The notes under the pieces are model-generated. The model did no database searches and was not told the DNA's origin. It saw only the letters and a program-made list of their open reading frames with translations. Positions 18,048 to 45,652 of a DNA stretch of 52,838 nt are shown piece after piece (the first letter of the stretch is position 1; each line of letters starts with the position of its first letter). The position numbers were made by a program, and so were the translations under genes. The DNA is from Chloroflexota bacterium (GTDB lineage Bacteria; Chloroflexota; Dehalococcoidia; Lucifugimonadales; UBA3495): contig JAQBVF010000025.1 in NCBI GenBank assembly GCA_027623675.1, positions 1-52,838 of the forward strand, given 5' to 3'.

Positions 18048-18544
18048 CGTCGCTCCTTTGGACTGGTTGGCTCCTCAGTTGGCTCGCAGGCCTGCGGGGC
18101 GCGGGGCCACCGGAGCGTTAGCAATGAGACGTTGTAACGGTCGTTCTAAAGCCCCTCCACCCGTATCTTGTTGGAACTCCCCAAAGCACTGACGGGCCGT
18201 GATGGCGGCCCGTTCATCCCTTCGCCCTGATCCACACTGCCAGGCCAACCGTTCAAGATAGCAGGTTCCGGTCATGAGTGGCCATTGCGATAGGTTGACA
18301 CCCTCAACATTATACGATATCGAGAATCTCAATCTCTGGGTCCCGGTCAAAGTTTACTTCGCCGTCAGCTTCGAGCCCTTCCCCGATTAACAGTTCCAGG
18401 GGTCGGCAAAGCCACCCCGGCCATGGTCCCCAAAACGGGAATCGCCATCGACCTGGTCAAGTAAGAAACGTAGGTTAGCATCCCCGGCGCGGATCCAGAA
18501 AGGTCGGTATATAACCGTTACCGATCTCGCCCTGGGACCACTGA

Positions 18545-36740: not shown

Positions 36741-36887
36741 GGACGAGCCCATCCTTCCCGGCTAGGCAAAATTCCACAAGTCTTTTTATGGCCCAAGTCC
36801 CCTTTGTGAAAAGGGGCTGTTGCGAAACTCCATTAAGAACAGAGTCTCCATGCTAGACTCTCCGCATCCTATTGAACGGGGTGCGTC

Positions 36888-37487
36888 ATGGTCAAATGCT
36901 CAGAATGTGGATTGTTGGGATTCAGGAACTTCCGGACGCTACAGATTGACGAGGCTATTGAGTCGATTCGGAGTGGTGGGCCATTTCCTCTTGACCTTGC
37001 CAGAACTGGATACAATCTACATGACCGTGTACCGATTTGCGTTCAAGGTGCGTTCCCGCTTCTCCGAGAAACGATGGAAGCGATTATGGAGCGAGGAGTT
37101 TCCGTATTGGATGCCGTTGCCGAGGGCCGCAATCCTGGGTTACCAGATGTTATGGCCGTTATTGGGAAAGAACGTTCCTGCACGGAATTCACTGAATGGC
37201 AACAGGGGTCATCTCCCAAGGAGCACCGGGAGATGATGGACAGGAAGTGGATGGAAGAAAGGGAGGAACGCCGTGACGAGGCAGCACGGAACTGGCAGAG
37301 AGATGAAAGTAGGTCGAATAGGAAATTTCGAATCGCCGAATTTGTGGTGGCCGTGGTAGGTGTGGTGGTTCTGGTAATGGCTGTTTTAATTGGGCGTAAT
37401 CAGACGGAGGTTCGAATCATTACACCAGACACAGTCTCGGGGGTAGAAAGTGAGGTAGATAGTGATGCTAAACCGAGCACCGAATAA
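36888..37487 (+). CDS. Hypothetical IS passenger protein (N-terminal CxxC, charged helix, single C-terminal TM)
   Basis: 199-aa ORF inside the TIRs; MVKCSECG, E/R-rich stretch, FVVAVVGVVVLVMAVLIG. Confidence 0.7.
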   Translation: MVKCSECGLLGFRNFRTLQIDEAIESIRSGGPFPLDLARTGYNLHDRVPICVQGAFPLLRETMEAIMERGVSVLDAVAEGRNPGLPDVMAVIGKERSCTEFTEWQQGSSPKEHREMMDRKWMEEREERRDEAARNWQRDESRSNRKFRIAEFVVAVVGVVVLVMAVLIGRNQTEVRIITPDTVSGVESEVDSDAKPSTE

Positions 37488-38377
37488 TACCGTCGTGACC
37501 CAACAGCAACGCGGCCAACGCCCAAGCCATCAATACCAAGATGGAACCGAGACAATGAACCGTGGCTTTCGCCAACCCTTTCATGGTGAGGCGGTTCCGG
37601 CGATGGTCTTTGGCTCGACCAAAGATGCGCTCGATGCCGGAACGCTTGGAGTAAAGAGGGCCGGTGGCAATCTTCAACTTACGGGTGGGATGCTGTTTGA
37701 TGACAGCGATTGCATTGTATCCTTCCACGGTATCCTTCCACGATTTGGCGATTAGCAGCGGAGTCATAGCCAGCATCGGCCAGGACGTGAGTAGGCGGAG
37801 TGGTCAGGCATTCAAGGGATGGGCCAACTTGGTGCATGTCGGATTCGTTGGCGGGGGTGACGTAAGCACCAAGAGGGATTTCGTGAGTAGCGTCACTTAC
37901 CAGATGGACTTTGTATCCGTACCACCACTTTATTCTTCCATTGCTGCCCTTTTTGCGACTGGACTGCGCGTCGGGATCAGTCCGCCGATAAGACGACCAA
38001 GCTTTGATGTCGCTGGAGTCGATAGCTACCACGTCGCCGATGTCAGGCACCAATTCCCGCAGGTGGGTGGCTACAATCGCCATTACCTGAGCTATGATGT
38101 CAGTGTCCTTGAGGCGGGCAATAAACCGACAAATGGCGTATTTGGTTGGAGTGCCGCCGATAATGTCAGCCAATGCGGAGTCATCATTGATGAGACGGAG
38201 ACCAGCGGAGATAGAGGAACTATTGAGGACGAATGTAGCCAGATAGGCCCGGAACAGAACTTCGGGGCCATAACCGGGACGGCCAGTCGGAGCTTTCAAT
38301 GCCTTGAGCATGTCAGCAGGAAGCGAAGTGAAAATCGCTTCCAGCCGTTTAACGATGCTAAAATAGGCGTTGCTCAA
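37468..38377 (-). pseudogene. DDE transposase frameshifted by a 13-bp tandem duplication
   Basis: GRPGY N-domain, AIDSS, GYKVHL, LADAGYDS in one frame and YSKRSGIERIFGRAK (Y-2-R-3-E-6-K) in another; removing one gtatccttccacg copy (37717-37742) gives one 299-codon frame. Confidence 0.9.
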
Positions 38378-38452
38378 GGTAGCCCCTTGGGTGCTGGGTG
38401 CCCTCTCTCGCCTGCAAAGTTCGGGAGAGCACCCTTATTAGTATATACGAAT

Positions 38453-38499
38453 AGTATATCTCTAAAAGGGTTGACCTGTCAATACCAATGGTATATATT
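38453..38499. promoter_or_regulatory. Back-to-back sigma70-like promoters sharing a -35 palindrome
   Basis: Plus strand TTGACC(38471)-17-TATATT(38494); minus strand TTGACA(38482)-18-TATACT(38458); palindromes ttgacctgtcaa and ataccaatggtat. Confidence 0.7.
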
Positions 38500-38526
38500 A
38501 TCAGTAACTGCTAATTGGAGTTACTG

Positions 38527-38694
38527 TTGGAACAATCCGCAAAACCTCTCGGTAAAGTTGCCCTGGAAGGATACCGTTGCCGCTGCGGCCACGAATGGCT
38601 CAAACGCGGCGCAAACGAGCCTAGGGTATGCCCAAAATGTAAGAGCCCAAATTGGGATAGACCGAAGTTGGTGCGCAAGGCGGACGCAGGTTAA
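38527..38694 (+). CDS. 55-aa Zn-ribbon microprotein (absent from the ORF track)
   Basis: Manual translation MEQSAKPLGKVALEGYRCRCGHEWLKRGANEPRVCPKCKSPNWDRPKLVRKADAG; ggag RBS and promoter directly upstream. Confidence 0.8.
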   Translation: MEQSAKPLGKVALEGYRCRCGHEWLKRGANEPRVCPKCKSPNWDRPKLVRKADAG

Positions 38695-38749
38695 CCAGTG
38701 GTACAATGTAGATAACCCTCTCCAACAACGGAGTGGCAGACGGGTGGTT

Positions 38750-38833
38750 TGGTCCCCTGGGTGGGATTCGAACCCACACGGCCTAGGCCAGGGTGGTGAT
38801 AGCACCCTGCGTCTTCCATTTCGCCACCAGGGG
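38750..38833 (-). tRNA. 84-nt class II tRNA with tRNA-Leu body and ATC anticodon
   Basis: CCCCTGG-TG-GCG-AAATGGAAGA-CGC-A-GGGTG-CTATCAC-CACCC-TGGCCTAGGCCGT-GTGGG-TTCGAAT-CCCAC-CCAGGGG-A-CCA; all stems Watson-Crick; encoded CCA. Confidence 0.85.
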
Positions 38834-38847
38834 ACGGGTTATAGAAA

Positions 38848-38890
38848 ACGGCGCATCGGAATTTGCCTGCAAGCGTTTCCGATGCGCCGT
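38848..38890 (-). terminator. Long hairpin between the wHTH-like gene and the tRNA
   Basis: acggcgcatcggaa / ttccgatgcgccgt 14-bp arms, followed by TTTT on the minus strand. Confidence 0.65.
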
Positions 38891-38896
38891 GTTTGT

Positions 38897-39364
38897 TTAC
38901 CCTATAGGCACTCCTTCATGCATAGGTCCTACGTCCTCATGGATGATAATCCGCCGTCGATAGAGCCCTCGGCCCATCCTCTCGATATTCCCTCGTTCAA
39001 TTTCCCGGCTGAGGGCAGCAGCGACCAGCTTGCCGACCGTCAATGGGTCTCTGTCGGGAAACAGAGTGGCTCTGACGCTGTCCCTAACCGTGTTGAACCT
39101 GATCACGCCCTTAGCCGGAATAATCTCACGGACTACATCAGGGACGGTGCGAGTTTCTCCAGCGCCCGAGCCCCGTTGGCCGGTAGTATCATCCTCGATT
39201 ATGGGTACCGGAAGTGGATACTGGGCGTTTCTGGTCTCCTCTTCAAGCAACGCCTTAGCATGGGAAATCAGGGACTGGAGATGTTGAAGGCGGAGTGTAA
39301 TGCTTCGAATTTCCGCATCATATTGAGCAACGCGGTCTTGAAGCTCCTCATTGAAAGCCATCAT
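38897..39364 (-). CDS. Hypothetical IS passenger: N-terminal coiled coil plus winged-helix-like domain
   Basis: Heptad-like LQDRVAQYDAEIRSITLRLQHLQSL; C-terminal VAAALSREIERGNIERMGRGLY wing-like motif; gagg RBS. Confidence 0.7.
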   Translation of the reverse strand: MMAFNEELQDRVAQYDAEIRSITLRLQHLQSLISHAKALLEEETRNAQYPLPVPIIEDDTTGQRGSGAGETRTVPDVVREIIPAKGVIRFNTVRDSVRATLFPDRDPLTVGKLVAAALSREIERGNIERMGRGLYRRRIIIHEDVGPMHEGVPIG

Positions 39365-39700
39365 GCCTCACTTCGCGAGATGGGTTACACAAATAATACC
39401 ATCATCGCTATGGTTACCGCAATGGGCAGAGAGGCGGGTTTAAGCGATGGCTAACGTAGGTTGTGAGGACTATTCCCCAGGTGTTTTAAGTGTTCAGAGT
39501 TTAGCAACAGCCTCTTGTGAAAAGGGGCCTTGAACATCTCGCATCTTCTGGAAGATGGGCGTTAGTCTTCCCACTACCAGTAAAGGGAGACAGAGGGGGA
39601 TCTTCGCGCTCGGGCTCCAGCCGTGCCCACCGGTGGCAGTTGTGTGCGGGTTCATTGTGCGCGGGTTCAATGAAGCGGGCTGACGGCTGACACCTAACCC

Positions 39701-42609: not shown

Positions 42610-42657
42610 CAAAGAAGCAAGGGCATCCCGGTCGACCGGGATGCCCTTGCTTCTTTG
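42610..42657. terminator. Perfect 48-bp palindrome, probable bidirectional terminator
   Basis: caaagaagcaagggcatcccggtc|gaccgggatgcccttgcttctttg between convergent genes. Confidence 0.75.
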
Positions 42658-45131: not shown

Positions 45132-45652
45132 GACTGGTATCGGCGGCACGTGGTGGCCTGGCGGCTTTTCAACACCCTGGAAGCCGACTTCTGCGTCGAG
45201 GCTTTGGAAGCGGCACTGGGCGAGGCGACCCCCGAGGTCTTCAACACCGACCAGGGGAGCCAGTTCAACGGTGAGGGCTTCACCGGCCGCCTGGAGCAGC
45301 ACGGAGTCAGAATCAGCATGAACGGCAAGGGCCGGTACGCCGATAACATTTTCGTGGAAAGGCTGTGGCGGGCGGTGAAGTACGAGGAGGTCTATCTGAA
45401 GGCCTACTCGGACGGACAAGAGGCCAGGGTGCGGATGGCCGACTACTCCTGATTTTACAACAACCGCCAGCCCCACCAGGCCCTGAGCTACCGGACACCG
45501 GCGGAAGTGTTCAACGGCGAGAAAGAAGAATCAACGGAACAGACGAAAGAGAGGGGGTGGTTCCCAGGCAGAGAATTGGTAGACCTCGCGGAGACAGCGG
45601 GACCCTCACTTAATATCACCCCAATCCTGTCTTAATAATGGGGTCCACCTAA
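45132..45652 (+). mobile_element. IS3-family transposase (OrfB integrase core) fragment with right end
   Basis: DWY..VVAWRLFNTLEADFC, FNTDQGSQF, DNIFVERLWRAVKYEEVYLKAY; premature TGA at 45450; terminus ...atggggtccacctaa. Confidence 0.88.

Follow-up and report, generated by a model that had tools for sequence, protein, structure and literature searches.

Why should a short insertion sequence (IS) carry a tRNA gene whose anticodon does not belong to its body? The question is raised by a single element of 2,702 bp (36813-39514) in a contig of a Chloroflexota bacterium (GenBank assembly GCA_027623675.1, contig JAQBVF010000025.1), whose positions 1 to 52,838, the whole stretch of DNA analysed, are called the window here. 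The element lies between convergent major facilitator superfamily (MFS) and CoA-transferase genes. As the original prediction had it, it is bounded by inverted ends of 18 bp and by an exact 9-bp target duplication; 16 of the 18 bases of the ends match. The transposase is central and takes up about one third of the length, and the three small open reading frames (ORFs) and the tRNA that had been described beside it are all present.

Judged from its sequence, the window copy is a single frameshifted transporter IS inserted into a hairpin resembling a repetitive extragenic palindrome (REP). Members of its family, by the comparisons given below, carry an exchangeable cassette that combines the gene of a regulator, made of a long helix plus a winged helix-turn-helix (wHTH), with a tRNA whose anticodon and body do not fit each other. 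We infer that the tRNA is a part of the element that acts in control at the level of translation. The tRNA had been called merely odd; it is present, but the mismatch of body and anticodon, and the link to recoding in related elements, had been missed.

The tRNA of the window element

The window tRNA scores 48.1 bits with the Rfam tRNA model (cut-off 29), and its stems, T loop and encoded CCA are all intact. The body is of the leucine type, with A73, a long variable arm and a Leu-type D arm. When the anticodon is masked, the best host matches are all Leu tRNAs, and the D arm is two bases away from that of the host Leu-CAA. The anticodon loop, CUAUCAC, is the loop of the host Asp tRNA (CUGUCAC) bar position 34, and is unlike every host Leu loop. 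Since it is of the Asp type, differs only at position 34 and resembles no Leu loop, it looks tuned for decoding rather than drifted. The canonical features of tRNA-Asp (G34, G73, a short variable loop) are lacking: the window tRNA has A34, A73 and the long variable arm, whereas the host Asp tRNA has the anticodon GUC and G73. The identity elements are A73, A15:U48 and the long variable arm for leucyl-tRNA synthetase, and G73 with G34 for aspartyl-tRNA synthetase. By these signs the window tRNA should carry leucine and read GAU, which accounts for about a quarter of the Asp codons of the host. The host has Asp and Leu tRNAs of its own elsewhere in the genome.

Related transposase loci, denoted by L numbers, were collected from genomes, metagenomes and viral contigs (194 matches, 146 distinct); the counts use 131 loci scoring at least 220 bits and 60 loci fetched later, 191 together. 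A tRNA on the same strand just upstream of the transposase is found in 17 of 85 loci with default settings, or in 23 with relaxed ones, duplicates included, and in none of 101 downstream controls. After de-duplication, a tRNA lies within 14 of 35 bounded cargo elements, versus none of 19 simple ones. There were 38 tRNA calls near transposases, from which four chromosomal neighbours and one poor call were set aside. The best host match is of the tRNA's own anticodon type in none of the remaining 33, as against three of the four chromosomal neighbours. Leu bodies read Asp, Glu or Ser codons, Arg-like bodies read Ser, Ser bodies read Cys, Leu or UGA, and a Trp-like body reads Gly; an ochre reader and tRNAs with 8-nt loops also occur. 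Body types, as judged by likeness to the tRNAs of one host, number at least seven and are spread over the tree, so that capture was repeated. In the intact element L049 a Glu-type loop sits on a Leu body, parallel to the window tRNA.

Further tRNA-like genes were noted in these searches. L065, L069, L083 and L092 have minimal tRNAs with a 3-bp D stem and 8-nt loops (UCGA, UCGU), for which no matching shift site was found. The upstream regions of L157, L187, L228 and L174 hold more tRNA-like or long-hairpin RNAs that ARAGORN missed, and the tRNA count is therefore a lower bound. A 77-nt Ser(GCT) call at G000:C2:18964-19040, beside a tRNA-Ala(GGC), has no long variable arm and may be a miscall or a degenerate tRNA. 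An unrelated stretch of the window's own genome (G000:C19:16996-19431, minus strand) holds a GNAT gene, an allo-like tRNA with anticodon UAA (18431-18516), a helix-plus-wHTH-like gene and an IS1-type transposase. It is resembled by L242 (G855:C1), where an allo-type UAU tRNA lies 925 nt upstream of the transposase and is followed by a helix-plus-wHTH-like gene. L164 (G619:C1) has two tandem odd tRNAs downstream of its transposase, then a coiled-coil gene; one has a CCA anticodon on a non-Trp body and the other a Leu body with a Ser anticodon. As the cassette of tRNA and regulator is found on an IS1-type element in C19 and downstream in L164, it evidently travels as a unit.

Recoding sites in sister elements

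A striking relation between a tRNA and its element is seen where the anticodon is UCA. In five such elements the upstream gene is in the frame of the transposase with only TGA stops between them, an arrangement found in two of the 70 other rows. One of these two exceptions, L183, has a UCA tRNA that ARAGORN missed (Rfam tRNA-Sec, 50.5 bits). The 60 later loci, 44 of them with an upstream ORF, were fetched after the UGA prediction had been made, and contain three more UCA elements: L277 and L280, both a complete fit, and L255, where two TGA codons are followed by TAA. In total, all nine UCA elements are in frame with TGA as the first two stops and eight have TGA only, compared with three of 110 other rows; in L188, L190, L255 and L277 the UCA RNA is irregular and was identified by eye, three of these four (L188, L255, L277) having escaped Rfam. 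A stop-x-x-(x)-D-Q-stop junction is common to L188, L190 and L277, and in these three there is no start codon between the second TGA and the conserved transposase sequence.

A second class of match involves reading four bases. In each of the three elements whose tRNA has an 8-nt loop with UGGU (L158, L177, L269), ACCAGUAGC lies close to where the upstream gene ends, and ACCA read there as one step (+1) enters a frame that is open to the transposase. The upstream gene overlaps in this way in one other of 75 rows; in L269 the upstream gene is itself broken. The ochre element L050, which has one TGA beside three TAA, fits less well. In sister elements with the order tRNA, regulator, transposase, covariation thus shows that the tRNA fits a candidate recoding site located between the latter two genes.

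No uninterrupted fusion of regulator and transposase was found among 8,000 longer candidates, in a weak search. No further UCA tRNAs came from a looser home-made tRNA scan, which was noisy (18 matches on the control strand) and missed known ones. In L187 a CUUCAAA stretch lies inside a long hairpin that was read by eye as not being a tRNA.

Two simple extensions of this scheme were rejected. The idea that a missense tRNA repairs codons of its own transposase was examined in 15-19 elements in three ways and gave no excess over background; it is retained for the stop and four-base types. At conserved columns cognate codons are scarcer than in the family background, but not scarcer than at the variable sites of the same element. 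For the window copy, a transposase made by read-through of the wHTH gene was rejected because nine mixed stops separate the two.

A proposed conditional mistranslating tRNA and its alternatives

The observations above can be combined into a description of how the tRNA may work. In the sister elements it would serve as the element's own on-switch, either by producing a fusion of regulator and transposase or by opening a hidden ribosome-binding site. In the window copy the order is different: regulator, terminator-like hairpin and tRNA follow each other, and the transposase would have its own promoter. Of 24 such cassettes, 21 have a strong hairpin (z ≤ -1.9) immediately preceding the tRNA, that of the window being the strongest. 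The window tRNA, charged with leucine and reading GAU, would normally be kept low by the hairpin, autorepression and an antisense transcript that is itself translated, and would be produced only on read-through. Once produced, it would put leucine at Asp codons throughout the proteome and slow or halt growth, in the manner of a toxin-antitoxin-like brake or tripwire. As a zinc-ribbon gene and a promoter lie between tRNA and transposase, and no cis target was found, a conditionally made, mistranslating tRNA is favoured as the best explanation of the window copy, one to which we give an even chance of being right. A wider proposition falls a little short of that: widespread ISs may control transposition by a decoder of their own (UGA suppressor, four-base or missense tRNAs, in cassettes swapped between unrelated transposase families), with a second layer in which an antisense frame of 500-730 codons, through being translated and not through its product, relays ribosomes over the length of the element to a small repressor gene, the element thereby sensing the state of host translation.

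Several points weigh against these proposals. None of the missense tRNAs, that of the window included, was found to have a cis target, and their cognate codons are enriched neither at conserved or deviating transposase columns nor in the regulators. No tRNA is seen in 21 of the 35 cargo elements, and L048, the closest relative, lacks one. The window copy is dead, so its tRNA may be under selection no longer. The combination of C1:G72 with A73 is also a proline signal. The body types depend on likeness to the tRNA set of a single host, and the Fisher value for the UGA match (2e-9) is overstated by kinship among the elements. Six transposon-linked allo-tRNA(UAU) variants were inactive in translation in the study of Mukai et al. 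(PMC5389517).

A somewhat unlikely alternative is that the tRNA acts only in cis, as an RNA-processing signal or insulator. RNase P and 3' trimming would cut read-through transcripts ahead of the transposase, and the anticodon would be free to drift. Such a role would agree with the fixed position of the tRNA, which in many elements precedes the transposase by about 90-100 nt, with the hairpins that flank the tRNAs, with the short D arms or C33 of some of them, and with the want of a cis decoding target for the missense types. A normal anticodon would, however, serve the purpose harmlessly, and yet none of the 33 is normal. The UGA and ACCA matches would be left unexplained, the window tRNA is separated from its transposase by the zinc-ribbon gene and promoter, and the tRNAs of L164 lie downstream.

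It is unlikely that the window tRNA is a relic, either of a suppressor switch or of a wHTH-gene pick-up, which is silent behind the terminator of a dead element. The broken transposase, the single copy and the missing target site are in keeping with this, as are L048, which manages without a tRNA, and the Ser body of L208, one base away from the UCA suppressors. Against a relic stand the intact stems, T loop and encoded CCA, and the full Asp-type loop on a Leu body, which has its parallel in the intact element L049.

A missed cis target is quite improbable. The tRNA would then tune the regulator in a feedback loop, for instance through position 16 of the wHTH coiled coil (Leu/Asp), much as the suppressor tRNAs would gate the transposase. 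The one hint is this residue 16, a GAU codon where three of five homologues have Leu and two have Glu; it is one of nine Asp codons, and the other regulator families have no comparable site. A one-off capture, or a tRNA that was the insertion target beside a simple IS, is scarcely credible in spite of the simple 1.6-kb relatives, as the inverted repeats enclose the tRNA, both in the window copy and in 13 further bounded elements, and the host Asp and Leu tRNAs are located elsewhere.

The family of elements

A common end motif bounds two kinds of element, simple and cargo-bearing. There are 24 loci of simple ISs, which make up a sister clade, 19 of them with both ends and 1,549-1,616 bp long. 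Distinct cargo elements with both ends number 35; the 31 with family-like ends measure 2.1-5.0 kb, except one of 8.8 kb, and four were set aside, the ends of three of them being doubtful. The proposal of a family, rather than a one-off, is borne out by these 35 elements. Simple ISs, which had been named as the sole context that would make the passengers a one-off capture, do exist in the family, yet cargo elements recur.

The usual layout is an end, a regulator gene, often a tRNA, hairpins, the transposase, variable cargo and the other end. A variable cargo slot had been placed at 36888-37487, and L048, whose transposase is 82% identical and whose end sequence is identical to that of the window element, indeed has an unrelated gene there. 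The suggestion that such cargo is related to defence or addiction often holds in the relatives, where it includes HEPN (PD-T7-4), Panacea antitoxins, ParE, dCTP deaminases, DUF3800, DUF488 and a proteasome-like protein; the window's own cargo has no Pfam or PADLOC match. The regulatory/RNA module had been thought fixed, with ends, zinc ribbon, wHTH gene and tRNA occurring together. The zinc-ribbon motif is found near the transposase in nine of 191 loci and the tRNA in 14 of the 35 bounded elements, the regulators belong to several families (DUF5343, HTH_17 pairs, helix-plus-wHTH proteins), and L048 keeps the zinc ribbon with no tRNA or wHTH gene in the 1,087 bp upstream. From this distribution the regulator-tRNA module is seen to be exchangeable, not fixed. 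The transposases of L160 and L158 type have five and three equal-scoring matches in their genomes, one copy of each having been read, and these elements therefore look recently active.

The antisense frame

A long frame runs antisense to the transposase, in codon register with it. It begins inside the end of the cargo gene and covers most of the element; the 13-bp duplication in the transposase has split it into 37462-37755 and 37664-39454. The window transposase contains no TTA, CTA or TCA codons, 10.7 being expected. In the short clade (300-350 aa), to which it belongs, there are 96 antisense stops versus 330 expected, and 23 of 37 transposases have at most one; the other clades have 796 versus 923 expected, with at most one in six of 90. 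The ratio is low (0.65) in a crude host baseline as well, but shadow frames contaminate that baseline. Beyond the transposase the frame stays free of stops for 358 codons, across the promoter, zinc ribbon, tRNA and wHTH gene (P=2e-4 for the spacer, by shuffling). Where the transposase is clean, 13 of 24 elements have an open spacer (2.0 expected), versus seven of 59 in the rest (4.3 expected). In eight relatives the frame stops at the start of a small antisense gene; no gene follows in the window copy. A conserved His is encoded by CAT, antisense ATG, in 15 of 22 versus 21 of 64. In L048 the frame has been lost (four stops).

A conserved antisense protein was rejected, as four-fold sites diverge as fast as they do without the frame and there is no Pfam or PADLOC match. 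It is the openness of the frame alone that is conserved. Because its product is not conserved, we infer that antisense translation may itself matter, either by shielding the transcript from Rho, which the host genome encodes, or by coupling to the small gene. Antisense ORFs are known from IS5 (ins5B, ins5C), a name absent from the papers examined.

The transposase and its placement

The transposase, of about 900 bp, is read in two frames that both match Pfam DDE_Tnp_1 (E 2.5e-14 and 1.3e-6). They are separated by the 13-bp tandem duplication, which is also present, with no differences, in contigs of two sequencing runs (X1, X2) that may be the source of the assembly. The nearest homologues, P0002 (85% identity) and that of L048, are uninterrupted proteins of 299 aa. 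As all close homologues are uninterrupted, a programmed frameshift at the duplication was rejected, and the frameshift most likely leaves the window copy inactive. Alignment of homologues places the catalytic residues at D120 and D201, both invariant, and E245, near-invariant, a DDE triad of the IS4/IS5 type.

For the 18 transposases tested, the IS1182 model (NF033551) is the best of any family profile, with 94-183 bits against a cut-off of 270 (94 for the N-terminal part of the window protein, 114 for intact L048). IS5_4 gives 42-98 bits against 140 (L048, 91), and IS5_3 gives 83 bits for L048 against 110. The family is IS1182/IS5-like by these scores, falls below every curated NCBIfam cut-off and is apparently undescribed. 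Where related transposases come from named records, these belong to Chloroflexota, for the most part Dehalococcoidia, and no plasmid record covers 80% of the protein.

Expression of the transposase may be restrained at its start. A hairpin over the ribosome-binding site or start is present in the window and in all eight relatives that were folded. A 12-bp palindrome (38471-38482) lies within the divergent promoter region, whose minus-strand hexamers are retained in L048. The promoter scan found three sites versus 2.5 expected, which is no enrichment by itself, and neither promoter nor terminator scans were richer than shuffled sequence.

The target site

The duplicated target is TTGTGAAAA, of which there is no third occurrence within the window. 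GC content is 0.48-0.58 within the element versus 0.61-0.65 in its flanks, and the 3.07-Mb genome assembly has one copy. The reconstructed target is the palindrome CCCCTTT-N4-AAAGGGG; two similar palindromes lie elsewhere in the genome, and the pattern is found in 11 of 20 genomes of the genus, this one included (reversed control, none). L048 ends in a similar flank. By the palindrome and this flank the subgroup appears to target a REP-like hairpin, as judged from these two insertion sites, the only ones seen. The anatomy had been read correctly in the original prediction, but the REP-like target and the antisense frame had been missed.

The two flanking genes are at most 72 bp apart, on one contig, in 15 of 19 same-genus genomes (16-35 bp in the four where the gap was measured), and the locus is therefore empty there, as had been anticipated. 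The exact empty allele was not seen in same-genus genomes, because those species lack the palindrome as well. Its joint was absent from the contigs of three sequencing runs, X1 and X2 among them, and contigs drop rare variants.

Some repeats nearby may be mentioned. The palindrome (36799-36812) and the right flank (39524-39608) resemble a repeat on contig C14 (43 nt, 86%), and in several palindrome copies of the genus the centre reads GCGAAAA, similar to the core sequence at the element's end. Elsewhere in the window, an 83-nt direct repeat (11-93 and 45568-45650, 78% identical), with one copy at the very beginning of the contig, may mark where another mobile element ends. A perfect 24-bp inverted repeat with zero loop lies at 42610-42657.

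The protein-coding passengers

The cargo protein belongs to an unnamed family of 991 clusters (E ≤ 1e-3) with invariant residues C4, C7, C51, C98 and H113, and 59 of 60 members have the hydrophobic segment. Its predicted structure has a mean confidence (pLDDT, predicted local distance difference test) of 91, and the N-terminal metal-binding domain is confidently predicted. The whole protein has no Pfam, PADLOC, PHROG or fold match: the fold search gave generic coiled coils only (Z ≤ 6.5), the viral library nothing and ESM Atlas unnamed clusters. The zinc-ribbon protein is 89% identical in L048 and matches Pfam only below the cut-off.

The wHTH protein has weak winged-helix fold matches, none at E ≤ 1e-3. 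Clustering groups it with the proteins encoded upstream in L022, L023 and L225, although transposase identity to these three elements is only 36-39%. Its score with AbiEi_4 is 14.6 bits (cut-off 25), and two homologues reach 26-27 bits; profile searches found no AbiEii nucleotidyltransferase partner gene inside the element. Neither viral contigs nor 400 genomes of the phylum yielded the DNA that surrounds its closest homologues.

Table 1. Coordinates of the features of the window element
Feature	Position	Strand	Basis or remark
Left copy of 9-bp target duplication, centre of REP-like palindrome	36804-36812		Sequence repeat
Terminal inverted repeat, cargo side	36813-36830	+	16/18 versus other end; family motif also bounds relatives
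Cargo gene, 199 aa: Cys/His metal-binding N-terminal domain, long helix, one membrane segment	36888-37487	+	Family alignment, model
Antisense frame sharing the codon register of the transposase; 658 codons long prior to the duplication	37465-39454	+	ORF analysis, stop counts
DDE transposase (299-aa type), frameshifted	37468-38377	-	Pfam DDE_Tnp_1, homologue comparison
13-bp tandem duplication disrupting transposase frame	37717-37742		Sequence, homologue comparison
Hairpin pairing transposase ribosome-binding site with TTG start	38375-38389	-	RNA fold
Leader hairpin 5' of transposase	38396-38434	-	Fold; hairpin at same place throughout cargo clades
Overlapping divergent sigma-70-like promoters (minus 11/12, plus 10/12)	38453-38499		Promoter scan
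59-aa zinc-ribbon protein, divergent from transposase	38515-38694	+	Homology, motif
84-nt class II tRNA, 7/5 fold, encoded CCA, anticodon AUC (loop 38796-38802)	38750-38833	-	Rfam, alignment
Strong terminator-like hairpin and U tract between wHTH gene and tRNA	38843-38894	-	-34.3 kcal/mol, z -7.4
155-aa protein, long N-terminal helix and winged helix, in codon register of transposase	38897-39364	-	Fold, clustering
Possible extended -10 promoter of wHTH-tRNA cassette	39393-39422	-	Read from sequence; below promoter-scan threshold
Terminal inverted repeat, regulator side	39497-39514	-	16/18 versus other end
Right copy of 9-bp target duplication	39515-39523		Sequence repeat

Implications

The window element is, on the evidence assembled here, a dead transporter IS through which a putative family-wide use of miscoding tRNAs is exposed. 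If this is true, a self-supplied suppressor or four-base tRNA matched to the element's own stops or shift site would be a new way of gating transposition, and host decoding would be altered as a side effect of the tRNA that the element bears. It suggests that mobile DNA may switch itself on by changing how ribosomes read. A testable role would be provided for the odd transposon-linked tRNAs left unexplained in the portion of Mukai et al. consulted (PMC5389517). The elements also offer nonsense, quadruplet and missense tRNAs as a natural library for genetic code expansion, and tRNA labels that were assigned automatically in these genomes ('Asp', 'SeC', 'Ser') can mislead.

Comparison with known systems

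The sources cited in this section are compared on the basis of the portions that were available. Transporter ISs have been described in which one transposase and its passengers lie inside one pair of inverted repeats (PMC9330008, PMC3129680, PMC5009743). The window element is built likewise and has a target duplication; the passengers described are regulators and resistance genes, whereas the window family has a recurrent miscoding tRNA, and the window transposase fits no curated family model. With IS1182/IS5 (NF033551, NF033581) it shares the DDE_Tnp_1 core and a DUF772-like N-terminus; it differs from IS1182 in its length, 299 aa versus a model of 488 positions, and in scoring below the cut-off. 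ISs that target REP sequences (ISPpu9, ISPpu10, ISPsy8, ISRm22; PMC1525189) similarly insert into an extragenic palindrome, although their transposase group differs.

The tRNAs have their nearest counterparts in two natural groups. Allo-tRNAs, whose identity is set by the body and not by the anticodon, occur near toxin-antitoxin genes and a transposon-related ORF (PMC5389517, PMC7609411), and missense allo-tRNAs arrest the growth of E. coli (PMC5389517). The amino acid of the window tRNA would likewise be set by its body, as predicted from likeness to the host Leu tRNAs. Allo-tRNAs are 8/4 or 9/3 and mostly of the serine type, whereas the window tRNA is 7/5 in the Rfam alignment and leucine-type; the available allo-tRNA texts name no defined IS family and no tie to transposase recoding. 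The tRNA-ProX/ProRSx system of Streptomyces is a natural mistranslating family with several anticodons and is toxic in E. coli (PMC10404621). It consists of one Pro body and its own synthetase gene, with no mention of transposons in the portion available, in contrast to the many bodies of the window family and the tRNA as IS cargo; the window element has no proSx-like ORF.

The recoding itself has a precedent in the programmed frameshifting of IS1, IS3, IS5 and IS630, which fuses a DNA-binding upstream ORF to a catalytic ORF and rations the transposase (PMC5009743). The full-text, mostly open-access literature searched showed no IS family in which an encoded suppressor or four-base tRNA gates the transposase. 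In the sister elements, too, an upstream ORF would be joined to the catalytic ORF by recoding; known IS frameshifting relies on mRNA signals and host tRNAs, whereas these elements supply the matching suppressor or four-base tRNA themselves.

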